From: Escherichia coli
Lineage (GTDB): Bacteria > Pseudomonadota > Gammaproteobacteria > Enterobacterales > Enterobacteriaceae
DNA length: 64,000 nucleotides
NCBI RefSeq assembly: GCF_024502345.1
Contig: NZ_JALDNN010000001.1
Direction: 5' to 3' (one strand)
Shown here: piece by piece, positions 2,935-36,567 of the stretch
How positions within the stretch are numbered: position 1 is the first letter of the stretch
Layout: the number at the start of each line of letters is the position of its first letter
The notes under the pieces: generated by a model
Databases searched by the model: none
Told to the model about the DNA's origin: nothing
The model's input: only the letters and a program-made list of their open reading frames with translations
Program-made: the position numbers and the translations under genes

Positions 2935-3903
2935 TTACTTCTGATTCAGGCTGCCTGAGAGGATGCAGAATACCCCCATCAGGTCAGCGTGACGGATGGT
3001 GACTTCCGCCTTTTCATTCACTTTTGGCTTGGCATGGTAGGCAATCCCCAGCCCTGCCGCTTTGATCATCGGCAGGTCATTGGCTCCATCGCCAATCGCC
3101 ACGGTCTGCGCCAGCGGGATTTCATACTCCTGCGCGAGGCGAGTCAGAGTTTTCGCTTTGTACTGCGCGTCTACGATGTCGCCGATCACATTGCCGGTAA
3201 ATTTACCGTCCATGATCTCCAGTTCATTGGCTACCACGGCTGTCAGGCGCAGCTTGTCGCGCAGGTATTCAGCAAAGAAAGTAAAGCCGCCGGAGGCAAT
3301 CGCCACTTTCCAGCCCAGCGTTTCCAGCTTGAGCACCAGTTGCGTTAAGCCTGGCATCAGCGGCAGATTTTCACGCACCTGTTGCAGAATATTGGCGTCA
3401 GCGCCTTTCAGCGCCGCCACACGGCTGCGCAGGCTGGCGGTAAAATCGAGTTCGCCGCGCATCGCCCGTTCGGTTACTTCCGCCACCATCTCGCCCGTTC
3501 CGGCCAGTTTGGCAATTTCATCAATACATTCAATCTGGATGGCGGTGGAATCCATGTCCATCACCAGCAAACCCGGCGTGCGCAGGTGCGGGATTTTCCC
3601 CAGCGGGGCGACATCCAGTTGCGCTTCATGGGCCAGGCGCGTAGCCCGTGCGGTGAGTGAACCTGCCAGACGAATCACCTGATAATCTTCCACGCACCAG
3701 GCGGCAACAATCACCATCGCCGCACCCAGTTTGCTCTGGTATTGGGTCAGACGCTGTTTATCCAGCCCACGACCATACAGCAGCCAGCCGCTACGACCTG
3801 CGTGGTAATCCAGTGGCATCACTTCATCACCACTTAATGAAAGAGGCAGACCCGGCCATAAAGAGACATCTTCAGGCAGGTCGCACCAGGTAATGTTAGG
3901 CAT
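2935..3903 (-). CDS. serB: Phosphoserine phosphatase
   Basis: 322 aa from MPNITWCDLPEDVSLW; HAD motif DMDSTAI; the longer ORF 2935..4041 is an upstream extension. Confidence 0.92.
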   Translation of the reverse strand: MPNITWCDLPEDVSLWPGLPLSLSGDEVMPLDYHAGRSGWLLYGRGLDKQRLTQYQSKLGAAMVIVAAWCVEDYQVIRLAGSLTARATRLAHEAQLDVAPLGKIPHLRTPGLLVMDMDSTAIQIECIDEIAKLAGTGEMVAEVTERAMRGELDFTASLRSRVAALKGADANILQQVRENLPLMPGLTQLVLKLETLGWKVAIASGGFTFFAEYLRDKLRLTAVVANELEIMDGKFTGNVIGDIVDAQYKAKTLTRLAQEYEIPLAQTVAIGDGANDLPMIKAAGLGIAYHAKPKVNEKAEVTIRHADLMGVFCILSGSLNQK

Positions 3904-16571: not shown

Positions 16572-18158
16572 TTAATGCTCGCGGGTCTGGTGGAACTGAA
16601 CGTCCGGATAACGTTCCTGCGCCAGGCGCAGATTGACCATGCTGGTAGCGATGTAAGCGAGGTTATCGCCGCCATCAAGCGCCAGTTGGCTTTCGTTCTT
16701 ACGCTTGAACTCTTCGAATTTCTTCGCGTCCGCACATTCTACCCAGCGGGCAGTGGCAACGTTGACTGACTCATACACTGCTTCAACGTTGTATTCGCTC
16801 TTCAGGCGCGCTACAACCACATCAAACTGCAGCACACCAACTGCACCAACGATCAGGTCGTTGTTGGAGATCGGACGGAACACCTGCACCGCGCCCTCTT
16901 CGGAAAGCTGTACCAGCCCTTTGAGCAGCTGTTTTTGCTTCAGCGGATCTTTCAGGCGGATACGACGGAACAGTTCTGGTGCGAAGTTCGGAATACCGGT
17001 GAACTTCATCATCTCACCCTGGGTAAAGGTGTCGCCGATCTGAATGGTGCCGTGGTTGTGCAGGCCGAGGATATCGCCAGGATACGCTTCTTCAACGTGC
17101 GAACGGTCACCCGCCATAAAGGTCAGCGCGTCAGAGATCACCACGTCTTTCGCGGTGCGCACCTGGCGCAGCTTCATGCCTTTTTCATATTTACCGGATA
17201 CCACGCGCATAAACGCCACGCGGTCGCGGTGTTTCGGGTCCATGTTGGCCTGAATTTTAAATACGAAGCCGGTAAATTTGTCTTCGCTCGCTTGTACGGT
17301 ACGGGTATCAGTCTGACGCGGCATCGGCGCAGGTGCCCACTCCACCAGGCCATCCAACATATGATCGACGCCGAAGTTACCCAGCGCAGTACCGAAGAAT
17401 ACCGGAGTGATTTCGCCCGCAAGGAACAGCTCTTTGTCGAACTCGTTAGACGCGCCTTTAACCAGTTCCAGTTCGTCACGCAGCTGCTGTGCCAGATCTT
17501 CACCAACCGCAGCATCGAGATCCGGGTTATTCAGCCCTTTAACAATGCGGACTTCCTGAATGGTGTGCCCTTTACCGCTCTGATAGAGATAGGTTTCATC
17601 TTTATAAAGGTGGTAAACGCCTTTAAACAGCTTGCCGCAGCCAATCGGCCAGGTGATCGGCGCACAGCCGATTTTCAGCTCGTTCTCAACTTCATCGAGC
17701 AGTTCCATCGGGTCGCGGATATCACGGTCAAGTTTGTTCATAAAGGTGAGGATCGGCGTGTCGCGCAGACGGGTAACTTCCATCAGCTTACGGGTACGAT
17801 CTTCAACACCTTTTGCGGCGTCGATAACCATCAGGCAGCAGTCCACCGCCGTCAGGGTACGATAGGTATCTTCCGAGAAGTCTTCGTGCCCCGGGGTGTC
17901 TAGCAGGTTAACCAGGCAATCGTGATACGGAAACTGCATCACAGACGTAGTAATGGAGATCCCACGCTGCTTTTCCATCTCCATCCAGTCCGACTTAGCG
18001 TGCTGGTTGGAACCACGGCCTTTTACTGTACCAGCGGTCTGAATGGCCTGTCCGAACAGCAGCACCTTCTCGGTGATGGTAGTTTTACCGGCGTCCGGGT
18101 GAGAAATAATTGCAAAGGTTCTTCTTTTCGCTACCTCTGCGGCCAAAAGGCTTGTCAT
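16572..18158 (-). CDS. prfC: Peptide chain release factor 3 (RF3), with an N-terminus supplied by the adjacent prophage
   Basis: GTPase motifs [18 protein letters not shown]-terminus reads [15 protein letters not shown], differing from the ancestral [16 protein letters not shown] that survives as a fragment at 34906..34956. Confidence 0.9.
18098..18111. repeat. attL core: 14-bp direct repeat GGGTGAGAAATAAT inside the prfC 5' coding region
   Basis: Identical 14-mer recurs at 34892..34905; sequences outside the repeats together reconstruct an uninterrupted prfC 5' end. Confidence 0.7.
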
Positions 18159-18177
18159 AATTGTTGTCTCTTTGATT

Positions 18178-18295
18178 ATGTACAATCATATGTACAAAGA
18201 AAAATTCATGCCGCTGATTGTACATTTTGGAGGTATCAGAGCATAGCAGAACATGATCAGTAGGTGTATTTGTAGCCAAAGAACATTTGTACATG
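18178..18295. promoter_or_regulatory. Cluster of four (A/T)TGTACA(A/T) repeats, candidate integrase arm-type sites
   Basis: ATGTACAAT, ATGTACAAA, TTGTACATT, TTGTACATG just inside attL; a similar cluster sits beside int at 34670..34729. Confidence 0.45.
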
Positions 18296-23989: not shown

Positions 23990-24242
23990 TGAATATCCCG
24001 GTTTCTTTACCTCCCCTCCCACCCCGCACAGGACTGGCGAACGTGTGGGACAAATATGTGAGTCATAAACGCCTTATCTTCAGAAATGCAGTTGGCATCC
24101 GAACAGGACGATATTGTAACTTCACCTAATTACGAGGCATTGCAGTAGTTGAATTGTAGTTCTGTATTAGCCTGACAGTGACAGAATGCGATATTGACTC
24201 TGTCACAGGTGAAATAGTTTGAATGGTTAGCAGTTATGGCGA

Positions 24243-24449
24243 TCAGTCAACCACCAGGGAATAATCCTTCGAATTCTTATCGTGCTTCACCAACGCTGCC
24301 TCAATTGCCCTGAATGCTTCCAGAGACACTTGATGTTCTATACATGCAATTACAACATCCGGATAACTCATAGAAATGGTGCTAGTGAGCATAGTTTTTA
24401 CACGGACCTGATCCAAGGATGAGTCATCAGTGTATTGATCTTTATGCAT
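24243..24449 (-). CDS. Hypothetical prophage protein
   Basis: 68-aa ORF in the position of ydfO-like genes; no motif recognised. Confidence 0.3.
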
Positions 24450-24744
24450 TTTGTCGCTCCATGCGTTTGCTCTTCACTTGCGGCTAAAAATATAACGTCA
24501 AATCACTCAGCATGAAAGTGTGAAAGTTTCAGCGCGTTTCCCTTACATAATCTGTCGTTTGTATTCTCTCCAGGCATACCGGAAAGACTAGGTATTGTCA
24601 CACAACCAATACCACCGACTATCGAGATTTATATCTATTCGGTAATGTTTAAATATAAAAAAACCCCGTAAAAACGAGGTTTATGGGTAAATTGTATTGT
24701 TGAATAGCATCTGATAAGAAATTGATGCTAATACTATAAACACA

Positions 24745-24918
24745 CTAGATTAAATCAATCTTGATATCATAGCTTTCAAGACCAGTCATTTTTTCCCGTG
24801 CAGTAAACTGGATACTGGTAACTTCTTTCCCGGTCTTTTTCTTAAGCTCAATAATTTTTTTTGTTATATATTCAGAAATATCTGCTTCTGTTTTTGTTTT
24901 TAACTCTTCAATGTTCAT
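24745..24918 (-). CDS. gnsB: GnsA/GnsB-family protein
   Basis: MNIEELKTKTEADISEYITKKIIELKKKTGKEVTSIQFTAREKMTGLESYDIKI resembles GnsB. Confidence 0.75.
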   Translation of the reverse strand: MNIEELKTKTEADISEYITKKIIELKKKTGKEVTSIQFTAREKMTGLESYDIKIDLI

Positions 24919-25090
24919 CATTTCCTCTTTTAGTCTGTTATGACTTTCCTGGTACACAGTAGTGTCAATTATATGGAGCAAACGTATAAAAGATAAGATG
25001 AAACATCGCAATAATCAACATACGACAGTCTAAATTTCGCACAAACAGATAAAGATGATTATCCTTTATTATCAAGGCATTAGAATGAAA

Positions 25091-25360
25091 TCAATTCAAG
25101 AGTCTCATTGCTGCTTCCAGAATTTCTTCTGAAGTTACATGTCGATCCGCTGCTACATAAATGACTTTATGATCTCCGGTCAGAGATGGAAACCCTGCAG
25201 CCATTACAGTGAGATGTGTTGTTTCGCCATTTGGATATTCACGCATGATGGTGTTAACTCCGGTCATCACTGGCACTACCATTGCTGGTTCAGAGTTAAA
25301 AAAAACTATTATTTTTTTCATGATGTTACCGTAATATGTGAGTATCCATCGACTAGACAC
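25091..25360 (-). CDS. Hypothetical prophage protein (ynfN position)
   Basis: ORF between the gnsB-like and csp-like genes; identity uncertain. Confidence 0.35.
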   Translation of the reverse strand: MSSRWILTYYGNIMKKIIVFFNSEPAMVVPVMTGVNTIMREYPNGETTHLTVMAAGFPSLTGDHKVIYVAADRHVTSEEILEAAMRLLN

Positions 25361-25592
25361 TAAGCAAAAAAGCTCCCGAAGGAGCCTTCATTTTCACTTT
25401 CTTAAATCTAACGACAGACGGCTAACATTTAAGTATTGTGAAATATTATCAAATGTAATCATCATTGATTTACAAAAGATACATTTTGCCCCGAAAGGAT
25501 TCCTGTCAGAAACATCAAAAGATGATGTTCTATACTGAGAACCATGGCAACACGGGCATCTAAAGTGAATATGGTTTGTAATATTTTCTACC

Positions 25593-25805
25593 TCAAAGTG
25601 CCACTACATGAACAGCCGCGGGGCCTTTAGGTCCGTTCTCAATACCAAATTCGACTTGCTGATTCTCAGTTAACGTTTTGAAATCGTTGCTCTGAATAGC
25701 TGAGAAATGGACAAACACATCTTTGCTACCATCTTTCGGCGTGATGAAACCAAAACCTTTTTCAGGGTTAAACCATTTCACTAAACCAGTCATTTTGTTA
25801 GACAT
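25593..25805 (-). CDS. cspI: Cold-shock protein (CspA family), prophage copy
   Basis: [38 protein letters not shown]... RNP1/RNP2 motifs; the paralog name is a guess from Qin gene order. Confidence 0.8.
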
Positions 25806-26174
25806 CATTATTACCTTTTGAAGAAGTGAGCCCTTGGGCAGAATGGTCCGAAAAAAAATATCAGAGAGAAAAACCAACAAGGAAATCTCAAGAGGTACAA
25901 ATAATAAAATTATAACAATGACTGCTTCAGATAATTTTGTAACAAACCAGAACACCATTAACGCATGATTAACCAACCATAGCAAGGATTACTTTTGTAA
26001 AGAAAAACACACGAATGAAACAATAGCTTTATTTATTAATAAAACGTGTCATTCTGTCTAATGACCTTTTATCTTACCCTTAAGATTTCAAGGATTTTGA
26101 CTCATGGAAGAGTCCTTTTTATTTAAATTTCACATTCAGCGCTAAAAATAATCCGATTTAATGTTAATCTACAT

Positions 26175-27196
<1,022 letters not shown>

Positions 27197-27301
27197 GGAT
27201 ATTTATCAGGATTTATCGGTTTCTGAACCCTGGATATGTTTATCTGTCCCGGCCTGTTGAATCAGGCGGGGAAAAGGTAAAGACAATCAAGAGGATTATT
27301 T

Positions 27302-27574
27302 ATGGACAATAACACCATTTCTCTACAGGAGTTGCTCGACTGCATTTCAAAGCTTCGGGATGATGTAAATGCCCTCACTGTTGCATTTTCATATTTGGCC
27401 TTATCAATTCCCAGAGAACAAATGCAACCAACACTGGCATCGCTCCTGCTTGAATCACGCAACCCCAAATGGTCCCAGGAACAACAAAATTCTTTCAAGT
27501 GGCTGGCGGCATTACTGGAAGAAAAATATGCTGGTAAAATTACCATTTCGGTGGAGTCTTCAGAGAATCAGTAA
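27302..27574 (+). CDS. Hypothetical 90-aa protein on the strand opposite to the lysis cassette
   Basis: ORF fills the gap between endolysin and ydfR-like gene; hydrophilic, helical-looking; no homolog recalled. Confidence 0.25.
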   Translation: MDNNTISLQELLDCISKLRDDVNALTVAFSYLALSIPREQMQPTLASLLLESRNPKWSQEQQNSFKWLAALLEEKYAGKITISVESSENQ

Positions 27575-27884
27575 TTCTTCCTGGTAGCTTTCCTTTGTAG
27601 GTTATCCACACATTCTGCGCCTCTAAAATTACGGGGCGCTTTTCCGGCGACTGCTCATCCCCTTCACATAACCCGGCTGCAACTTCCAGGAAGACCTGTC
27701 TGATGCTCCTTCTGGCTGCTGCCTCATAAAACTCCAGCGCGGCACCTTCAACACGGTCCAGCGAGATGTCCAGGTCAAAAATTTCACCGTCAAAGCGTTT
27801 TTTGTCCCTTAATGCTACAGTTACCGCAACTTTATTCTCAAAATTGCGGATCCCTTTCACAATCAGTTCATAGTTTTGTGTCAT
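27540..27884 (-). CDS. YdfR-like prophage protein (DUF1327)
   Basis: Sits between holin and endolysin as ydfR does in Qin. Confidence 0.6.
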   Translation of the reverse strand: MTQNYELIVKGIRNFENKVAVTVALRDKKRFDGEIFDLDISLDRVEGAALEFYEAAARRSIRQVFLEVAAGLCEGDEQSPEKRPVILEAQNVWITYKGKLPGRITDSLKTPPKW

Positions 27885-27888
27885 TGAA

Positions 27889-28104
27889 TTACTCTCCCCG
27901 TGCAACCTTACGCTTGTCTTCTTTAATCTTGAAATAAAGGTTTGTCAGGTACGTCAGCAAGCCAAATACCAGACTACCCAGCACACCGATTGCAGCCCAC
28001 TGTGACGGAGTTACTTTATCGAGTAACTGCAATGCCCAGAAACCAGCATTACCAGCCGATGTGCCATAGGCGATACCTGTTGTTAACTTATCCATTGATT
28101 TCAT
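27889..28104 (-). CDS. Holin (phage 21 S / EssQ-like)
   Basis: 71 aa with TM segments WALQLL...[15 protein letters not shown] and a charged C-terminus. Confidence 0.8.
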
Positions 28105-28322
28105 ATCCTCACCCCGATGTACACAGATGGTGCAATATGTTTGAAAAGATCGGAGTCTATGGGGTAGTTTTTATAGCAAACGTTGTTCTCAACGGCGCTA
28201 AAAAACAGACACATTAAAAATGTGGGTAATTATTTTAAAAGAAAATCATATATTAAATAATAATACGAGATATGTTTTCATATTTAGTGTACTGTATACG
28301 GCCATTTATACAGGAAAAGCCT

Positions 28323-28493
28323 ATGTCAGAACGTAAAGACTCAAAATCACGCCGTAATTATCTCGTTAAATGTTCCTGCCCAAACTGCACCCAAGAGTCA
28401 GAACACAGTTTTTCAAGAGTACAAAAAGGTGCCCTTTTGATCTGCCCTCATTGCAACAAAGTATTCCAGACAAATCTTAAAGCTGTAGCTTGA
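28323..28493 (+). CDS. Small zinc-ribbon protein (CxxC...CxxC)
   Basis: MSERKDSKSRRNYLVKCSCPNCTQESEHSFSRVQKGALLICPHCNKVF; AGGAAA RBS. Confidence 0.4.
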   Translation: MSERKDSKSRRNYLVKCSCPNCTQESEHSFSRVQKGALLICPHCNKVFQTNLKAVA

Positions 28494-28552
28494 TTGATTT
28501 TATTCGTAACAAGTATTTTTTATATTTTAATAACATATTTAAAGCAGATAAT

Positions 28553-28577
28553 AAAAAACCCGCCTGAGCGGGTTTAA
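28553..28577. terminator. Hairpin ACCCGC-CTGA-GCGGGT with flanking A/T runs
   Basis: Perfect 6-bp stem with T-run on the minus strand. Confidence 0.5.
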
Positions 28578-28856
28578 TATTGTGGTACTTTTTGTGGGAG
28601 TCATCCACTTACGCACTTTGTTTTGCTATGCCAGCAGTTAGCTTCTGCTGTAAAACTATTCATGCAGCAAACCTGCACTTCACCACAATGGTTAGCATAC
28701 TTTTCCTGATTAAGTTATTGCCAAATATGCTGGCCATTGTTTCATGTATTGGACCTCCTTACTCTTTATTAAAGAGATCCAATATTCACCACTCTGTCTG
28801 TATCTCCACTCAGGCATCAGCCTTCTTCGTTATCGTATACAGACAAACTATGAATT

Positions 28857-29072
28857 TTAATCAGTAATTATGACATTTGCTGCTGCAGGACCTTTAGCAC
28901 CACTCTCTACAGAGAAGGTAACCTTTTGACCTTCAAATAAGATTCGATAATTATCATTCTGAATCGCAGAAAAATGCACAAACACATCTTTACTACCATC
29001 AACAGGAGAAATAAAGCCAAAACCTTTATCAGCGTTAAACCATTTTACTAAACCAGTCATTTTATTTGACAT
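28857..29072 (-). CDS. cspB: Cold-shock protein (CspB-like)
   Basis: [38 protein letters not shown]... Confidence 0.85.
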
Positions 29073-29372
29073 TCTACATTCCTTAACTTGAGCCTTTCGG
29101 CATAAATGGCTTGTATAACAGAAACGACTTCGTACTTAATTGGAGAGACTCAAAGAAGGAATAAGTGAATAACACCTGAAATGAGAACTGCTTTAGTAAA
29201 CTACTTCGTATATCGTCTGTTCTTCAAACCGACGCAATCATTAACGCATAGTTGAACATATGAAGCAATGTTTATTTTAGACATCCAGCCATCTTCAACC
29301 CCATCAAAAAACTATAGCTTTCTTCAGGAACGTGTGTATAGTGCGCCAAGTTATCAGTATTAAGGAATTTTT

Positions 29373-29585
29373 TTGTCCCGTAAAATGACAGGAATTCTCA
29401 AAACCTTTGACGGCAAAAGCGGCAAAGGTCTTATAACCCCATCCGATGGTCGTATCGATGTCCAGCTTCATGTTTCAGCGCTCAATCTCCGCGATGCAGA
29501 AGAAATTACCACCGGATTACGCGTGGAATTTTGCCGGATAAATGGTCTGCGTGGACCATCAGCTGCCAATGTTTACCTTTCATGA
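29373..29585 (+). CDS. cspF: Cold-shock-like protein (CspF/CspH-like)
   Basis: [39 protein letters not shown]... Confidence 0.8.
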
Positions 29586-29880
29586 GCTATATTAAAGCTT
29601 TAACTTCAAGCCCCATCGAATCAAACATGGAGAGTTTTCATGAATAAACCCGTCTGTCTTGATGACTGGTTGATTGGCTTTAAAAGCTTATGCTGTACTT
29701 TGACCTTAATAGCTCTGCTAATAATGTAATAAGCAGACTCATTGTATCTATGGACATTGTACTGGAAGAAAACATTTTAAACATCAGGCAAAAAACAAAG
29801 TCACCCGATAAATAATAAGTAAACTAACATGAATCCCGTAATGAGATTCAACATCTCTATTACCCTATTTAAAGCACAAA

Positions 29881-29905
29881 AACCCGCTCATCAGCGGGTT
29901 TTCTA
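29881..29905. terminator. Candidate late-operon terminator (tR'-like) downstream of Q
   Basis: CCCGCT-CATC-AGCGGG stem with T-runs on both strands, ~110 bp past the Q stop. Confidence 0.5.
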
Positions 29906-30007
29906 CTTTTTCTTAACTTCGGGTATACAAAGCCCATCGTTGAAAAAATTTTATCCATATTTTTTGAAAAATGCAAGCATCACGTCGCCATCTTCGGCGA
30001 AAATCAC

Positions 30008-30760
30008 TTATCTCGTCACCTTTCTCAATTGTGCTTCAGCGTAAGATTCCTCCTGCCAGCACTTTGTAACCAGTTTATCAATGACATTTGCATATCCTTT
30101 ATACCACTGATAATCACTCAGGTCCGGTACCAGCTTCTGGACATGATGCCGCGCCAGTGTGGTTGGTAAACGACTAAACCGTTTTCCATTGCAACGCCCA
30201 CAAATCTTATAAACAGGTGTGCCATGAAGCCGGGTCCTTTTTTCATCCAAGACAATACCTTTACCCTTACACCCTCTGCACGCTGTGCTGACTTCTCCCT
30301 TACCATGGCAATGCTGACATAGTTCCTTCACCCACTCTTCTTTGATAACAGATTCCCCGCTTCTGGAGTGTTTCACCACTTCGCGCAATACATTATGAAA
30401 TCCAGTACCAGCACAATGCTCACAACGAGCCTTACTTGCCGCAGACCTGGAATAATCAGCAAAGGCAAAATTCACAAGGTAAGGAATAATCTGTAGCCGG
30501 GTTTCTTCACTCAATTTATTCAATGTCGGGTTATCCAGTGCCATCGCGTAATTGAGCAGACCTTCAATCGCAAACTGAGGATCCTGAACACCAACTTTTG
30601 CCAGGAATAAGGCAAACCCAAGCGGTGCTTTCGACTGCACCATCCCCTGCGCAGCCATCACATCCGTAATCGTTAAACCACCAGAGCCTGTCGCCGGTGC
30701 GTCATCACTCAATTTTGGAGATTTTGGGGAGTAATATTTTGGTAAGGCTTCAAGGTTCAT
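30008..30760 (-). CDS. Late-gene antiterminator Q (QuuQ/phage 82 Q-like)
   Basis: 250 aa with Cys clusters CEHCAGTG, CQHCHGKG, CRGCKGKG, CGRCNG. Confidence 0.8.
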   Translation of the reverse strand: MNLEALPKYYSPKSPKLSDDAPATGSGGLTITDVMAAQGMVQSKAPLGFALFLAKVGVQDPQFAIEGLLNYAMALDNPTLNKLSEETRLQIIPYLVNFAFADYSRSAASKARCEHCAGTGFHNVLREVVKHSRSGESVIKEEWVKELCQHCHGKGEVSTACRGCKGKGIVLDEKRTRLHGTPVYKICGRCNGKRFSRLPTTLARHHVQKLVPDLSDYQWYKGYANVIDKLVTKCWQEESYAEAQLRKVTR

Positions 30761-30820
30761 GCTCGTTCTCCACTTACGCCAGTACGCCTATTGCCAGCGC
30801 ACGATCGATAAAACGAAATA

Positions 30821-31171
30821 TCAGCTCCAGCTGGGAGCCATACTTCTCTTCAAATGCCACGGTAAACGCTGGTTAATATCGGCATTGTCCACATCCTCGA
30901 CGTCAGGAAGAGACACAAAGACGCCATTTGCAGACTGCGCCACAGCGTCAGCAATGAAGTGAGTGCCACCAGCACGTTGTAAAATCATTGCCCATCCCAG
31001 CGGGAAAATCTGATCGCCATCGGCACGAAGGCGGTTAAATAATGCGTTCTCTGTTACATCCAGCCACTCAGCAGCTTCAGCGTACCCCACCGGCAACGCC
31101 GCGATAGTTTTTCTGACAGCTTTCACGTACCACTCAGGCTGTTTTTCCACTTTCCAGTGATGATTACCCAC
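30821..31171 (-). CDS. Phage regulatory protein, CII-like; possibly truncated
   Basis: 116-aa ORF overlapping the Cro-like gene stop and ending 60 bp before Q; no replication genes in between. Confidence 0.4.
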   Translation of the reverse strand: MGNHHWKVEKQPEWYVKAVRKTIAALPVGYAEAAEWLDVTENALFNRLRADGDQIFPLGWAMILQRAGGTHFIADAVAQSANGVFVSLPDVEDVDNADINQRLPWHLKRSMAPSWS

Positions 31172-31424
31172 GGCTTACCTCCTGTTCCTGTGGTTTAAAC
31201 CCATTCTGGTTTTGGCTAGATTGAAAACGTGCCGGATAAAGAATCTGCATTTCGCTGATTTCACCCTTAAAAAAATTGGCCAGACGTTCTGCAAGATCGA
31301 TAGATGGAATTTGTTCCAGTCTTTCAATACGACTCAGCGTCGCTGGATTGACCTGAACGCCAGCAGCAACATGCTGCAAAGTAAATCCGTGCGCCTTACG
31401 CACATTCCGTAATGGTGATTGCAT
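31164..31424 (-). CDS. Cro/antirepressor-like HTH protein
   Basis: HTH GFTLQHVAAGVQVNPATLSRIE; divergent from the cI-like repressor. Confidence 0.6.
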   Translation of the reverse strand: MQSPLRNVRKAHGFTLQHVAAGVQVNPATLSRIERLEQIPSIDLAERLANFFKGEISEMQILYPARFQSSQNQNGFKPQEQEVSRG

Positions 31425-31521
31425 ATGACCTCCACATATTGCGTGATGAGCATATTATTTCACGCAAATATTTTGCGCAAGTTGATTTGCTTAACGCGCA
31501 ATAAAGAAATGTAATAAACGC

Positions 31522-32214
31522 ATGAACATAGGAAACCGAGTCAGACAACTTCGCCAAGCGAAGAACATGAAAATCGCCGATCTCGCTGAAGCAATAGGAG
31601 TGGATGCGGCGAATATCTCACGCCTGGAAACAGGTAAGCAGAAACAATTCACTGAACAAGCCCTGAGTAATATTGCCAGGAGCTTAGGTGTTGATATTGC
31701 TGATCTCTTTACCTCAGACTTCAAAAGTAATACTGTATGTAAAAACAGTGTTAGTGAGGATGTTGCGCAGGTGAAGGATGTATTCCGTATTGAAATGCTG
31801 GATGTCAGTGCCAGTGCGGGAAATGGCCTTATCCAGGGCGGTGATGTCATTGATGTGATTCATGCCATTGAATACAGAACTGATAATGCTGTATCGATGT
31901 TTGGCGGACGGCCAGCCAATCACATTAAAGTTATCAACGTTCGTGGGGACAGTATGTGTCCAACCATTGAGCCAGGAGATCTCATCTTCGTTGATGTCAG
32001 TATCAATCAGTTTGATGGAGATGGTATCTATGTATTTGGTTTTGATGATAAAATTTATGTCAAACGACTGCAAATGATACCTGACAAACTACTGGTGATT
32101 TCTGATAACCAGATTTACCGTGAATGGGGAATTACCAGCGAAAATGAACACCGGTTTATGGTCTTTGGAAAGGTCTTAATCAGCCAGTCACAAACCCTTA
32201 AGCGACACAATTAA
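31522..32214 (+). CDS. CI-like repressor (HTH plus S24 LexA-type peptidase domain)
   Basis: N-terminal HTH IADLAEAIGVDAANISRLE; C-terminal GDSMCPTIEPGDLIFVD...VKRL Ser/Lys dyad. Confidence 0.85.
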   Translation: MNIGNRVRQLRQAKNMKIADLAEAIGVDAANISRLETGKQKQFTEQALSNIARSLGVDIADLFTSDFKSNTVCKNSVSEDVAQVKDVFRIEMLDVSASAGNGLIQGGDVIDVIHAIEYRTDNAVSMFGGRPANHIKVINVRGDSMCPTIEPGDLIFVDVSINQFDGDGIYVFGFDDKIYVKRLQMIPDKLLVISDNQIYREWGITSENEHRFMVFGKVLISQSQTLKRHN

Positions 32215-32234
32215 CCCTTACCTCCTCATCAATT

Positions 32235-32256
32235 AGCCACCCAAAGGTGGCTTTTC
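32235..32256 (+). terminator. Rho-independent terminator after cI
   Basis: AGCCACC-CAAA-GGTGGCT stem followed by TTTT. Confidence 0.65.
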
Positions 32257-32649
32257 ATTACCCTTTAAATTGCATATCTCGCAACAAAAACACTTGCATA
32301 ATGCGCAACTTCATTTTATCTTTCTTTCCAGACAAACAAACAAGGTACTAACAAAATTTGGTTGTAACACGGCGTATGGCACATGCGTCGTTAGCGGTCT
32401 GGGGACGTTAAAGGGGACAATCCACTCCTTGCTCGGGCAAACAAACCAGGTAGCCGGAATGTGCAAGTCAATGATGATGCTGATAAGACGCCTAACCAGC
32501 GTGGCGATTCGGTTTGACGCCTGGGAAGAGACCAGGGTGCAACGATGAGGGCATTTATGGAGCCGCGACAAAGTGTGGTGCCGTAACTGGCTAAGTGCTC
32601 TCAGCGTTGTGGTAATCCGCGAAATGGCGCGGCGGTAAGTATGGCGGGG

Positions 32650-33255
32650 TTACTCTTTCCCCGTTGAGGACACCGGATTGTCAGGTTGACCATACGCCTG
32701 AGTGACAACAACCAGACGATTCAGGGCAGTATCATCCGCCTTTTCCGGTAACAGCCCATGCAGGTATACAAGTCCATCCCAGCGGCTGTTTTTTGGAATT
32801 GGCAGCATCGGCGCTACATAGGCCTGAAAAGCCTGGCCTGTACGTTTAGCTGCCACATGAAAGAGACGGTCAAAGTTGGTAGTGACCAATCGAAGGGCAC
32901 CCTCGCGGCTACGGGCTAAACGTAACAGCGCCGCCTGAGTATCAATAGCGCCCCTACGACGGAACTTTGGCTTAAGGGCTTTTTCCAACGCGCGTCGGAC
33001 GGCTATACGCTGCCCTGGTAAGCGCCGTTCCAGCAAATCTAATGTGCCGTCAAATTGCCCACGCTCGAAAACCTCACGCTCAATTTCTGAAAGTGTTGTT
33101 CCGTTCCTCTGGTAAATTAGTTCTACCAACCCTTTGAAACCAGGTAAACCAGCAGGGTAGGAAATGCCTGCTCCACAGAAGAACACAACGCGCCCTTCCT
33201 CGTGCGCCTGCAAAAGCTCATCAGGAATATCAGGGCCGTTGGTAATGAATTGCAT
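32650..33255 (-). CDS. SIR2-like domain protein (short, 201 aa)
   Basis: VVFFCGAGISYPAGLPGFKGL (Rossmann GAG), VTTNFDRLF, LVYLHGLL match SIR2_2-type motifs as I recall them. Confidence 0.55.
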   Translation of the reverse strand: MQFITNGPDIPDELLQAHEEGRVVFFCGAGISYPAGLPGFKGLVELIYQRNGTTLSEIEREVFERGQFDGTLDLLERRLPGQRIAVRRALEKALKPKFRRRGAIDTQAALLRLARSREGALRLVTTNFDRLFHVAAKRTGQAFQAYVAPMLPIPKNSRWDGLVYLHGLLPEKADDTALNRLVVVTQAYGQPDNPVSSTGKE

Positions 33256-33437
33256 TCCTTTTCCTCCTATCCAATGTGCACGTTCATTCGAGTAAATGAA
33301 GGCAAGGGGTTACATCTTATTATACCGACCGTGCAAATCCGGCTTCCTAGCAAGCTACTTTACTTGCCAACTCATAATGTCCGAACTCCGAACAAAGCGG
33401 ACTGCTAGATTTGATTGCGTTCTAGCTACGCAAAATA

Positions 33438-34661
33438 TCATTTCGAGCCTAAACGAGTACAAGTAACAATCGATTCAACTCTCTCCCACCATGCCTGGTA
33501 GGCTTTACGCTGTTCTTCTAGATAATCACTCTTGTCATAAACTTGCCATACACCTGGCAGTTTATGACCGAGCATTATTTCAGCAATATGAGGCGCAGTA
33601 AGATCAGAAAAGTTTGTTCGTGCTGTTCGTCTCAAATCATGAAGAGACCAATGAGGAAATTGATACCCCAAACGCCGCCATGCGTACTGCATTAAATTGT
33701 AAGGCAGCGACTGCAATGATGTCCGACCAACTGGTTCCCTGCTTCCTTCCTTAGTAAAAAGCATATCGGAACCGTTGTTCATAGAGATAACGTATTTTAT
33801 AAGCTCTTCAACCGGTTCAATAATGGGCCGCTTTAGCGGTTCGCCTGTTATATCCCCTGTCTTATGTCGTTCTGGTGGTACAGTCCATATTTTATTAATG
33901 AAATCAAAATCGTCCACCTTGGCAGTAATTAGCTCTGAACTACGGCAACCAAAATGCAGCAATAGTTTAATGAAGGCCCGGTATTTAGGAACCATTCGAG
34001 AACCATCGATCGCAGCATAAAGGATTTTAATTTCATCATGTGTCAGAAACCGTTTCTTCTGACCTTTACGGATATCCATATCTTTACCCGTGATATCCGA
34101 CAGCGGGCGAGTTTCAATGAGCTTTCTCTTATACGCCCAGACATGGGCCTGCTTTGCGTTAATTAGCAATCGGTCTGCTATTGCTGGAGTCTTAGTGCTA
34201 AGAGGCTCCAGGACTTCTAACCAATCATGCAATGTAGCTGCATCGTGAGGGATATTCCCGATTTTAGAGAACAGGTGCAGCTCAAACGAGCGGAGTATCT
34301 GTTCAGAACCTTTTTTATTTTTTACACAATATGCTTCATACCAAGCACGGATCACAGATTCTACCGTCATGGCTTCAGTAGCTTTACGTTTTTCTGCCAG
34401 CTTGACCAATCGTGGATTGCGGTTTGACTCGAGTTCACCACGAAGACGGATAACTTCTTCTCTGGCCTCTTTTAGTCCAGTTGCCGGGTAAGTTCCGATA
34501 TCAAGACGCTCACCTTTCCCCGCCCACTGATAACGATATTGGAACACTACGCGACCTTTCGGTGATACTCTAACAGACAGACCATCACGATCGGATTTAA
34601 CCAAAACCTTATCACGTTCCTTTCCAAGGACTGAACGCAACCACGCATCAGACAGCGCCAT
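33438..34661 (-). CDS. int: Tyrosine integrase, P4-type
   Basis: 407 aa; N-terminal DUF4102-like arm-binding region (MALSDAWLRSVLGK...GLSVRVSPKGRVVFQYRYQ), C-terminal catalytic region with HDLRRT...LGHK. Confidence 0.9.
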   Translation of the reverse strand: MALSDAWLRSVLGKERDKVLVKSDRDGLSVRVSPKGRVVFQYRYQWAGKGERLDIGTYPATGLKEAREEVIRLRGELESNRNPRLVKLAEKRKATEAMTVESVIRAWYEAYCVKNKKGSEQILRSFELHLFSKIGNIPHDAATLHDWLEVLEPLSTKTPAIADRLLINAKQAHVWAYKRKLIETRPLSDITGKDMDIRKGQKKRFLTHDEIKILYAAIDGSRMVPKYRAFIKLLLHFGCRSSELITAKVDDFDFINKIWTVPPERHKTGDITGEPLKRPIIEPVEELIKYVISMNNGSDMLFTKEGSREPVGRTSLQSLPYNLMQYAWRRLGYQFPHWSLHDLRRTARTNFSDLTAPHIAEIMLGHKLPGVWQVYDKSDYLEEQRKAYQAWWERVESIVTCTRLGSK

Positions 34662-34669
34662 TACTCACC

Positions 34670-34729
34670 TTGTACAAATAACAAAAAACCTCTGCTGTTT
34701 TGTACATTATGTACAAGCACATGTACAGA
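34670..34729. promoter_or_regulatory. Cluster of four (A/T)TGTACA(A/G) repeats beside int, candidate arm-type sites
   Basis: TTGTACAAA, TTGTACATT, ATGTACAAG, ATGTACAGA within 60 bp of the int start. Confidence 0.45.
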
Positions 34730-34884
34730 TTTTTGATGAAAGTAACCTGATCAATTTAAAGTTACATGAAAGAATTTTCAATCAAAGAAATCACATAACA
34801 TCATGTTATTAAATGAGTTATATAATTATCACTCAATTAATCGAAAGGATTTTGAAAGAGTAAAAGAGCTTTTATTTGGGCTTA

Positions 34885-34956
34885 ATTATTGGGGTGAGAA
34901 ATAATGGCAAAAGTGCGGCGCTTCGCCACCTCTTGCAAATAAGGAGACAACGTCAT
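34885..34956 (-). pseudogene. prfC: Displaced ancestral 5' end of prfC ([22 protein letters not shown] then stop)
   Basis: Reverse complement encodes the remembered K-12 RF3 N-terminus for 22 codons, then runs into island sequence and stops. Confidence 0.8.
34892..34905. repeat. attR core: second copy of GGGTGAGAAATAAT
   Basis: Identical to 18098..18111. Confidence 0.7.
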
Positions 34957-35046
34957 AATTCTTTCTTCTTGAGTAAGCGGCATCGCGCCGCGCTTGTTGA
35001 AAACGAAAAATTGCGGCTATTTTACCCATCAACGGGGGGGAGGCAA

Positions 35047-35724
35047 TCAGTGTTTACACAGGAGCTGCTCCAGTTCGTGCAACGAAGAAACGGTCCAGGT
35101 GGGTGCGATGCCTTCTGGTTGCTCGCGATGGTGCGCATTCAGCCAGCAGGTCGCAAGCCCGGCGTTGATGCCACCGAGAATATCGGACTCGGCAGTGTCG
35201 CCAACCATCAGCACGCGTGAACGGTCAGGATTGCCCGCCTGTTCCAGCGCATAATCGAAAATTTTCTTATTCGGTTTGGCAACGCCAACTTCTTCGGAAA
35301 TCACCAGCAAATCGAAGTAATCACGCAGGCCCGTGCGTTCCAGACGCACTTGCTGCAAGGCGCTAAAGCCGTTGGTGATGATGCCGATTTTGGCGTTGCC
35401 ACAAATGGCGTTAAGCAGAGAAACCGCGCCCGGCAGCGGCGTACAGATTTCCGCCATCGCATTAATAAAGGCTTCGTTGAGTTTACCTGGCTCGACGTTC
35501 AGCCGTTCGGCCCAGCTCTCAAACCGCCCGTGCTGAAGCTGTAATGAAGTGATCGCGCCGTTTTGATAATCCACCCACAGTGGCTTGTTAACGGCCTGAT
35601 AGTCCTGAAAATCTTCAGCGGTAAAGGTGACGCTGTAATCAAGAAACATCCGCTGCAGGCCGGTGAATGAGTCAAAGGTAAACAGCGTTTCATCGGCATC
35701 AAAGAAAATCCAGTCCCACTTCAT
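35047..35724 (-). CDS. yjjG: HAD-family pyrimidine 5'-nucleotidase YjjG
   Basis: 225 aa [15 protein letters not shown]... HAD motif I. Confidence 0.9.
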
Positions 35725-35738
35725 TATTCCACCTTGTA

Positions 35739-36185
35739 TTACATACTGATTGGCAACGCCATGATGATGGCGTCTTCGCGACCGTCCGTGGTGGGGTAGT
35801 AATTGCGGCGAATCGTCGCCTCGTTAAAGCCTAAACTTTCGTACAGGGCAATGGCGGCAGCATTTGAAGCACGGACTTCCAGCCATAGTGTCGCCACGCC
35901 GCGTTTTTCCAGTTCGTCGATCAGATGTTCCAGCAGCGCCCTTCCCAATCCCTGACGCTGATAGTCAGGATCGACCGCAATATTGAACAATGTAGCTTCA
36001 TCCAGCACCACTTGCGTAATCGCAAACGCCGCCATTTTGCCGTTTTGCGTTAACTGAAAGTTGAGATAACGCTCGCCCTGGTTGCTGGCAAACGTTTTTT
36101 CACTCCACGGAAAGGCGTGGGCGCGTTGTTCAATGTGGTAAGCCGCTGGTAAATCAGTCGTTTCGAGGGAAGAAATCGTGTTCAT
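35739..36185 (-). CDS. rimI: Ribosomal protein S18 alanine N-acetyltransferase
   Basis: 148 aa GNAT fold, matches RimI. Confidence 0.9.
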
Positions 36186-36567
36186 ATGTGCAAATTTGTT
36201 GCCATAACGCGGCGCGTGCCGTTGGGTTTGCCCGTAAATCGGTGAGCGCCGGTGATGCCACCTGAGCGCCTTCCAGTGATAGCGGTTCGTCAGTACCCAA
36301 CCGCCAGCTGTTGCAGCGACTGCCTTGCGGCAGCATCGCGATTTTTTCTGGCGTCAGTTGCAGCACTTGATCGGGGCTGACGGTTAATGCGCGCAGAACA
36401 TCGCTCACTAAAGGATCAGTCAGGGCGGGAAGATCGTTTGCCACCATCACCAGACGGACGTGTGCCGGGATCGCAATGGCAATCTCCCCCTGCAACGCGC
36501 CAGGGCGACGCAGCGACCACTGGGTAATGCCCAGTTGCTGTAACTGCCAGTCTCGTCGGGATGTCAT
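36154..36567 (-). CDS. holD: DNA polymerase III psi subunit
   Basis: 137 aa MTSRRDWQLQQLGITQW... Confidence 0.9.
   Translation of the reverse strand: MTSRRDWQLQQLGITQWSLRRPGALQGEIAIAIPAHVRLVMVANDLPALTDPLVSDVLRALTVSPDQVLQLTPEKIAMLPQGSRCNSWRLGTDEPLSLEGAQVASPALTDLRANPTARAALWQQICTYEHDFFPRND

Follow-up and report, generated by a model that had tools for sequence, protein, structure and literature searches.

We analysed a window of 64,000 nucleotides (nt) of an Escherichia coli genome (assembly GCF_024502345.1, contig NZ_JALDNN010000001.1) and within it the gap at 32215-32649, between an intact cI-like repressor gene and a SIR2-like open reading frame (ORF) in a prophage remnant. An earlier description made from the sequence alone, here called the original prediction, had presented this gap as a non-coding segment between an immunity repressor and a cargo gene, with a terminator, a promoter-like element and perhaps a small RNA or the remnant of a deleted gene. 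Its coordinates are right: the repressor ORF runs to 32214 and is as long as the XRE-family regulator annotated in E. coli O55:H7 strain CB9615, while the SIR2-like ORF on the minus strand has its stop codon at 32650-32652. The segment does lie between these two genes and is non-coding, and the terminator placed after cI was found as a 7-bp hairpin with a T-run (Table 1). The main content of the gap escaped that description, namely a 241-nt RNA supported by covariation, which consists of a pseudoknotted core (helices P1-P5) and a long hairpin (P6). In the prfC-integrated prophage of CB9615 the gap sequence recurs with 100% identity, and the operators, promoter, core and P6 of the window are identical to those of intact prophages. 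The gap probably serves as control region and untranslated leader for a prophage early-left (PL-type) operon, with the structured RNA lying in that leader.

Table 1. Position and strand of the features in and around the gap, in window coordinates
Feature	Position	Strand	Remarks
Operator-like palindrome TTGCTTAACGCGCAA	31487-31501		Repressor/cro intergenic region (right-operator, OR, side); repeat family D1
cI-like repressor gene, intact	31522-32214	+	ORF; Pfam HTH_3/HTH_26 and Peptidase_S24
Terminator of repressor gene	32235-32258	+	7-bp hairpin AGCCACC-CAAA-GGTGGCT (32235-32252), then T-run
Operator-like palindrome TTGCATATCTCGCAA	32270-32284		Left-operator (OL) side, distal copy; repeat family D1
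Operator-like palindrome TTGCATAATGCGCAA	32294-32308		Overlaps -35 hexamer; repeat family D1
Putative PL-type early-left promoter	32294-32322	+	-35 TTGCAT 32294-32299, 17-nt spacer, -10 TATCTT 32317-32322; predicted start ~32330
A/C-rich leader, predicted unstructured	32330-32369	+	40 nt, from predicted start to RNA
Conserved structured RNA	32370-32610	+	241 nt; pseudoknotted core P1-P5 and hairpin P6
RNA core P1-P5	32370-32536	+	Alignments A1, A2, A3; covariance model
Helix P1	32370-78/32382-90	+	
Helix P2	32394-95/32453-54 and 32398-401/32447-50	+	
Invariant 19-mer GGTAGCCGGAATGTGCAAG	32449-32467	+	P2/P3 junction
Variable hairpin P3	32468-87	+	
Helix P4	32488-91/32499-502	+	
Pseudoknot	32494-97/32511-14	+	P4 loop with downstream GGUG
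Helix P5	32520-24/32532-36	+	GAAGAGA loop
Hairpin P6, long and imperfect	32537-32610	+	Base CAAC...GUUG, stem GAGGGCAUU/AGUGCUCUC, apex variable; putative RNase III target at 5' edge of DicF-type precursor
Module C	32606-32709	+	5' part of DicF-type precursor, cut off by deletion; 93% identical to L003 3001-3104
Deletion junction	32707-32709		3-bp microhomology; 6,772 bp missing relative to CB9615
Chimeric SIR2-like ORF, 201 amino acids	32650-33255	-	~183 N-terminal dsr1 codons (32707-33255) and ~18-19 codons antisense to module C

The structured RNA and its promoter

BLAST comparison with E. coli genomes and phages divided the gap into three modules, A, B and C. Module A (32215-32349) was found only in phages of the same immunity type, for example mEp460 and PhiR47_1, and module B (~32356-32620) recurs at 75-88% identity in three unrelated contexts. 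The related loci compared with the window are numbered L001, L002, L003 and so on; L001 and L135 are from CB9615 and L003 is the Qin prophage of K-12. Three alignments of the element were made. Alignment A1 holds 12 BLAST-derived homologs that were not selected on the 19-mer of Table 1, and it shows the invariant blocks GGTAGCCGGAATGTGCAAG, GGCGAT.CGGTGTGAC and GGAAGAG with compensatory changes between them. The 19-mer was used to recover at least 120 loci from IMG/VR; A2 comprises 68 representatives below 93% identity, and A3 comprises 90 sequences, including 22 from bacterial genomes, aligned by the covariance model. Across A2 the five helices (P1, P2, P4, the pseudoknot and P5) pair in 97.7% of cells, against 27-54% in slid controls, and 14 of the 28 pairs are changed on both sides, in 140 cells; none of 500 shuffles reached the observed values. 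In A3 the figures are 98.3% of cells paired and 197 double-change cells, again reached by 0 of 500 shuffles. The compensatory changes thus exceed both the shuffled and the slid controls, as expected of a conserved structured RNA. Covariance model R1 matches the window at 32349-32575 with 158 bits (E = 1.5e-46).

Conserved G-U pairs are frequent, on the plus strand only, and because of them the fold exists on that strand alone. The 19-nt invariant junction is explained by no helix. In addition, the invariant GCACAU of helix P1 (32382-32387) is complementary to the invariant AUGUGC of the 19-mer (32459-32464). RNAalifold proposed this long-range pairing; both of its sides are invariant and show no covariation, and we kept the local P1 hairpin since P1 covaries. 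The GCACAU/AUGUGC pairing could be a tertiary contact or an alternative conformer of the modelled fold.

Known RNA families do not account for the element, and the search of Rfam by covariance models proposed in the original prediction gave no family for the gap. With Rfam 15, no match was obtained in the gap when window 31000-35000 was searched at E <= 1, and at 32320-32720 with E <= 10 the only match was a chance one of 14.6 bits on the opposite strand. Nothing was found at the element in 17 related loci at the gathering score. ARAGORN reported no tRNA or transfer-messenger RNA in window 31000-35000; in relatives, a true tRNA-Arg occurs only after the element. Full-text literature searches with the 19-mer, written as DNA or as RNA, returned no paper, and keyword searches gave no description of the element. 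Fremin et al. 2023 (PMC10690425) list over 10,000 phage RNA candidates without names, and the element may be one of them.

The RNA lies behind a putative early promoter flanked by repeated palindromes. The motif TTGC-N7-GCAA has four exact matches in the window against 2.7 expected, and three of the four (31487, 32270 and 32294) are concentrated in ~190 bp of sequence that flanks the repressor gene. We infer that these three palindromes form an OR/OL-type operator set of candidate binding sites. The same palindrome thus stands on both sides of the repressor gene and overlaps the PL-side promoter, as in lambda-type OL/PL regions. The promoter-like element TTGCAT-17-TATCTT of the original prediction is present on the plus strand as described and is plausibly of PL type, but its match to consensus taken alone is not above chance (2 sites were found by the consensus scan and 4.0 expected from shuffled sequence). 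The putative promoter gains support only from the operator repeats and its conservation in relatives.

Promoters also precede the RNA in independent lineages. In L132, a diverged relative, TTGCAT-17-TATCTT stands ~52 nt before the RNA, the same distance as in the window, and L026 and L114 have TTGACA-16-CATAAT 53-54 nt before helix P1. In L063, L102, L106, L107 and L110 a TTGCGT-17-TATCTT promoter, with the same type of operator overlapping its -35, ends 7-9 nt before the first helix, and other good promoters end 6-8 nt before it in L044, L125, L131, L105 and L043. The final 13 nt of the leader (TTTGGTTGTAACA) are common to phages P1 and D6. Judged from these arrangements, transcription from a repressor-controlled early promoter would thus, in many lineages, begin with the structured RNA. 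In epsilon15-like phages a conserved promoter-like TTGACA-17-TACCTT site stands ~85-100 nt upstream of the RNA and is overlapped by the palindrome ATTACCTTTTAGGTAAT (L002 2883-2925, with homologous positions in L007, L035, L066, L078 and L115), which suggests that repressor control may operate there too.

The arrangement resembles that of lambda OL/PL and nutL in its order of repressor gene, terminator and repeated operators overlapping a promoter of the same direction, and in two relatives also in a boxA after the core. It differs in that the OL side showed only two operator copies, the promoter matches the consensus weakly, and the window is without boxA/boxB and an N gene. A boxA/nut site was considered and set aside, being present in 2-4 of 134 relatives and absent from the window. 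In the lambdoid variants L072 and L121 a hairpin and a perfect rrn-type boxA TGCTCTTTAACAA replace P6, ~129 nt after the 19-mer, as a nut-like site after the core.

Hairpin P6, the DicF-type precursor and the deletion

Downstream of the core, P6 folds in the window at -34.6 kcal/mol (z = -4.2). It is formed in ~39 of 46 anchored relatives with differing stem sequences, which by lineage are GAGAGCAUU/AGUGCUCUC, AAGAGCAUU/AGUGCUCUU, GAUGGCUUUCU/AGAGAGUCAUC and AAAGCGCACUCC/GGAGUGCGCUU, and its apex measures 20-90 nt across lineages. The apices of L007, L011, L020, L103 and L114 contain T-arm-like hairpins (GGTTCGAATCC-type) with the look of a tRNA-like minihelix.

Module C connects the element to DicF. 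The Qin sequence that matches it sits immediately 5' of DicF (RF00039; L003 3133-3184, 76.7 bits), and a weaker copy stands just before the annotated "dicF-like region" in the ban leader of phage P1. Qin also has a homolog of P6, CAUAAC-GCG-AAAGCGCAUGG...CCGUGCGCUUCC-GGUUGUGG, at L003 2922-3007 (z = -3.4). Homology in module C and a significantly folding P6, in the window as in Qin, place the segment with the DicF precursor and dicBF leader. According to PMC10448788, which cites Faubladier 1990, DicF occurs as a 53-nt species made by RNase E and as a 190-nt species whose production depends on RNase III. A length of 190 nt measured upstream from the DicF terminator (L003 ~3187-3189) leads to L003 2998-3000, inside the 3' strand of Qin P6 and corresponding to ~32603-32605 in the window. 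Because the Qin homolog lies where, by this measure, the 190-nt species begins, P6 is taken as an RNase III processing hairpin; by analogy with Qin, P6 would be cut by this enzyme, parting the core from the DicF-type precursor.

The dicBF leader of Qin occupies the same position as the element, downstream of a cI-like repressor (DicA) and an operator-controlled promoter, and it shares module C and, at the start of the 190-nt species as measured above, the P6 homolog. It differs in being without the P1-P5 core, in place of which ydfABC stand in front. Conversely, DicF is not found in the window, where its expected position is deleted, and intact CB9615 has only a DicF-type hairpin. This hairpin shares TTTGGCGGTAYCAGTTT with DicF and fails the Rfam DicF model at E <= 1, and no DicF-type hairpin tested reaches the Rfam DicF threshold. 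A DicF-type terminator motif, T[TG]GGCGG[TC]...[AG]CCGC[CT]..TTTT, lies downstream of 89 of 134 copies of the element, and a CB9615-type DicF-like hairpin 270-350 nt downstream of the 19-mer in 29 of the 134. The terminator hairpin UUGGCGGU...ACCGCCCUUUU is seen in lambdoid and epsilon15-like phages, in the latter after tRNA-Arg(UCU).

Alignment with CB9615 locates a deletion to the right of the element. Window 30862-32709 corresponds to L001 2648-4495 at 99.8% identity and window 32707-36424 to L135 3718-1 at 99.4%, the two blocks overlapping by 3 bp. Non-coding homology to intact prophages reaches 32709, ~60 nt inside the called SIR2-like ORF; the true non-coding segment is therefore 32215-32709 and the right edge of the gap is artificial. 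In CB9615 the non-coding stretch is ~700 nt long and is followed by yfdP-yfdQ-yfdR-yfdS, two DUF551 genes and, next to the integrase, a convergent full-length dsr1 of 3,828 nt. Relative to CB9615 the deletion thus took out the DicF-type hairpin together with yfdPQRS and the greater part of dsr1. None of 5,426 complete E. coli genomes has this junction, though both flanks are common there; it may be particular to one strain, or the window may derive from a genome beyond that collection, for example of Shigella. The original prediction had looked to homologous prophages for a lost gene, and gene loss was indeed found, but at 32707-32709, right of the segment; its alternative of a small RNA or a gene remnant holds in that an RNA element is present and a deletion is nearby, while the segment itself is no gene remnant.

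The SIR2-like ORF, read as a cargo gene, is by its sequence a dead, truncated dsr1 stub. It is 99.4% identical in DNA to the first ~183 codons of dsr1 in CB9615, the gene of a defense-associated sirtuin (Dsr1), and differs from Dsr1 in being a 201-amino-acid chimera instead of 1,275 amino acids, with the C-terminal region absent and only positions 3-63 of the 141-position Pfam SIR2_2 profile matched. The structured RNA can probably still be made in this remnant. Its transcript would run through the shortened module C into the antisense of the dsr1 stub, in agreement with the original prediction that transcription from the promoter would be antisense to the SIR2-like ORF. The DicF-type partner and all early-left genes are gone.

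The remnant (~18.2-34.9 kb) sits in the 5' end of prfC, whose intact copy (16572-18185, minus strand) has a phage-supplied N-terminus, and the displaced original N-terminal stub (34882-34983, minus strand) lies next to yjjG. A second rearrangement shows in the 116-amino-acid ORF at 30821-31171 on the minus strand: homology to the CB9615 prophage begins only at 30862, inside ymfL, so that the ORF is a shortened YmfL-like protein, directly adjoining the Q antiterminator gene (30008-30760). The remnant also carries two cold-shock genes, as in Qin-type prophages, one CspB/CspI-like (28857-29072, minus strand) and one CspF/CspH-like (29373-29585, plus strand).

Distribution and genomic contexts

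The RNA was found in 1,832 of the 5,426 complete E. coli genomes; plasmids account for 551 of the places, and no listed genome carrying it has a RefSeq annotation under the element. In 133 loci of 1-15 kb the covariance model gave one copy per locus and no second copy on the early-right (PR) side. Confirmed loci in species genomes number 24, of which 22 are in named Enterobacterales taxa (20 species records), including Citrobacter, Klebsiella, Kosakonia, Phytobacter, Pseudescherichia, Buttiauxella and Erwinia, and 2 on contigs of metagenome-assembled genomes (MAGs); these two short contigs, labelled Bacillota and Lachnospiraceae, are probably mis-binned. Matches to an 18-mer outside Enterobacterales (Azonexus, Bacteroides and Dysgonamonadaceae MAGs) were unconfirmed by the model and were set aside as chance or partial.

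Three contexts recur, and in all of them the RNA points in the direction of the RNA genes behind it. In lambdoid phages (cdtI, 2H10, Stx2c phages, mEp390) it follows the repressor gene. In the epsilon15-like Uetakeviruses (phiV10, SPC32H, TL-2011b and a Klebsiella phage) it is immediately 5' of tRNA-Arg; a tRNA-Arg(UCU) starting at the very end of P6 was counted in 32 of 134 copies. The order in L002 is RNA, tRNA-Arg and then a terminator with a 14-bp stem (3362-3397). In phages P1, P7 and D6 the RNA lies between tRNA-Ile and the helicase gene ban, and in 4 of 134 copies a tRNA with a CAU anticodon, which the P1 and D6 records call tRNA-Ile, precedes the element by ~14 nt. The P1 copy sits in the C1-controlled ban operon; none of the 535 annotated features in the P1 record falls between trnI and ban. 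From these gene orders, the recurrent unit appears to be a regulated promoter, the core, P6, a spacer (tRNA-Arg or module C) and a DicF-type hairpin.

Two further observations concern the surroundings of individual copies. The 5' flank of the RNA in epsilon15-like phages (GTCGTTAAAT...GAGTGCGCTTCCAGGTGTG, L002 2955-3000) resembles the 3' strand of P6 and that of Qin (L003 2965-3007); such partial 3'-domain copies ahead of the element could reflect tandem ancestry or a recombination hot spot at GTTGTGG. In Enterobacter phage Tyrion an unrelated int-alpA RNA (RF02996, 44 bits) is located ~1 kb downstream of the element, at L008 2598-2662.

Function of the core

These elements can be arranged into a conditional sequence of events. 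Once the repressor is inactivated, RNA polymerase would start at ~32330 from TTGCAT-17-TATCTT and transcribe the structured RNA first. RNase III would then cut P6, as in Qin, where it yields the 190-nt DicF species, and in epsilon15-like phages RNase P acting at the abutting tRNA-Arg would part the core from the rest. Either cut would release the pseudoknotted core as a discrete RNA of ~215 nt. From its genomic setting, the core most likely acts in trans as an early phage RNA, for example as a scaffold or decoy for proteins, and would be expressed together with DicF-type and tRNA genes; that it regulates one particular downstream gene is less likely. Trans action is favoured because the core precedes a tRNA, a small-RNA-like hairpin or a helicase gene, because a transcription start or tRNA 3' end delimits it upstream and an RNase III or RNase P site downstream, because epsilon15-like phages have an RNA-only unit that ends in a terminator, and because of the invariant junction. 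The anatomy and the route of biogenesis are well supported, unlike the role proposed for the core. We infer a DicF-type phage RNA cassette with a putative, undescribed pseudoknotted domain.

Several points weigh against this account. The promoter matches 7 of 12 consensus positions and was not reported by the consensus scan. The folding energy of the whole gap is unremarkable (z = -1.0 and -0.2 on the two strands), so that only sub-domains and comparative analysis are informative. Most homologs were recovered via the exact 19-mer, and its invariance therefore comes partly from retrieval, A1 alone being independent; A3 was fitted to the model and so favours structure. Phage P1 has the core without P6. 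The RNase III site was placed by the 190-nt size on a gel and not by a mapped coordinate, the '813/814' numbering of PMC10448788 not being convertible. Lastly, the claim of trans action draws only on the variety of downstream genes and on the bounding promoters and processing sites.

The core could instead act in cis as a processive antitermination or anti-Rho element, in the manner of HK022 put or the rrn and nut leaders, allowing read-through of the DicF-type terminator and the long leader into yfdP and beyond. We regard this as unlikely, though it is the alternative with most to commend it: in lambdoid phages with no N gene to be seen, the core lies close to the promoter of the early-left operon, a strong intrinsic terminator separates it from the first ORF in at least 31 of 69 representatives, the untranslated leader of CB9615 is ~600 nt long with a terminator ahead of yfdP, and the two variants described above carry boxA in place of P6. 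HK022 putL/putR are likewise folded RNAs situated early in such operons, in lambdoid phages that lack N. The put RNAs of HK022 are ~70 nt long with two stem-loops, whereas the element is ~240 nt with a pseudoknot, occurs in a single copy per locus and is also present in P1-like and epsilon15-like phages beside tRNA genes. HK022 24000-34000, including its PL/PR regions, yielded nothing with an nhmmer profile or with R1, and the 133 loci of 1-15 kb hold no PR-side partner like putR. In epsilon15-like phages the abutting tRNA, at which RNase P would sever the tether, is followed by a terminator, leaving nothing obvious to antiterminate; moreover, the P1 copy is more than 2 kb from the ban promoter and the window copy has no boxA. 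A ligand-sensing riboswitch or self-cleaving ribozyme seems more doubtful still on the modelled structure. An invariant unpaired core, a pseudoknot and covarying helices are the usual signature of such RNAs, and the complementarity of GCACAU and AUGUGC makes alternative conformers possible, but no Rfam riboswitch or ribozyme matched, no expression platform is apparent (P6 has no U-tract and masks no ribosome-binding site) and the downstream genes are heterogeneous, comprising a tRNA, a small-RNA-like hairpin and a helicase.

Two remaining explanations are very improbable. The structure might act as DNA, either in recombination or as a single-stranded signal for initiation or priming, given its position just upstream of the P1 helicase gene ban, the GTTGT-type motifs at both of its edges and the 3'-end remnants upstream of other copies. 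It always points the same way as the RNA genes behind it, however, and promoters stand directly at its 5' end; on the opposite strand many of the conserved G-U pairs would turn into C-A mismatches, and the homologous hairpin of Qin sits where, according to PMC10448788, the transcript is processed by RNase III. The other, scarcely credible either, is that the segment is a small-protein gene or the decayed 3' part of a longer gene, the outcome that the original prediction had named as fatal to it. Mechanical ORFs of 92 amino acids (plus strand, TTG start) and 86 amino acids (minus strand) overlap the segment, some phage records annotate hypothetical proteins over the homologous stretch, and the minus strand is often open across the core. 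Neither ORF matches Pfam or PHROGs, however, which bears out the view that no convincing ORF is present: the plus strand has stops in all three frames in 50 of the 68 copies of A2, core lengths modulo 3 are distributed 31/19/18 across them, out of frame, and substitutions are compensatory in helices and show no codon pattern, so that the element does not behave as protein-coding. Decay of a longer gene is contradicted by alignment, since the segment is 100% identical to the leader of intact prophages, where it is intergenic, and dsr1 homology begins only at 32707.

We return to the core as a trans-acting early RNA. Its features are shared in part with GOLLD, ROOL, T4 stable RNA species 1/2 and the C4 RNA of P1 (processed by RNase P), which are likewise phage-encoded, structured, often tRNA-adjacent and released by processing; it matches no Rfam family, neither GOLLD, ROOL or C4 nor any other, its hosts are Enterobacterales, and it is smaller than GOLLD and ROOL. 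Tentatively, and with less confidence than we place in the leader itself, the P1-P5 core may be a new functional class of RNA (a ribozyme, a ligand or protein sensor, or a ribonucleoprotein scaffold) that is made first at the onset of lytic growth in temperate phages of Enterobacterales, in one RNA-only cassette with tRNA-Arg(UCU) and DicF-type RNAs, and whose target would be a conserved machine of the host, for example RNA polymerase/Rho, RNA-processing enzymes or the translation apparatus.

Roughly one in three complete E. coli genomes carries this folded RNA, which annotation leaves blank and for which there is no Rfam model, and it occurs in P1, relatives of Stx phages, phiV10 and epsilon15-like phages. 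If it is expressed, DicF would become part of a conserved multi-RNA cassette under repressor control, made up of the core, a tRNA or spacer and a DicF-type hairpin, the RNase III step of DicF maturation would gain a structural basis, and a tractable new RNA would be at hand for the study of host takeover or anti-defence.

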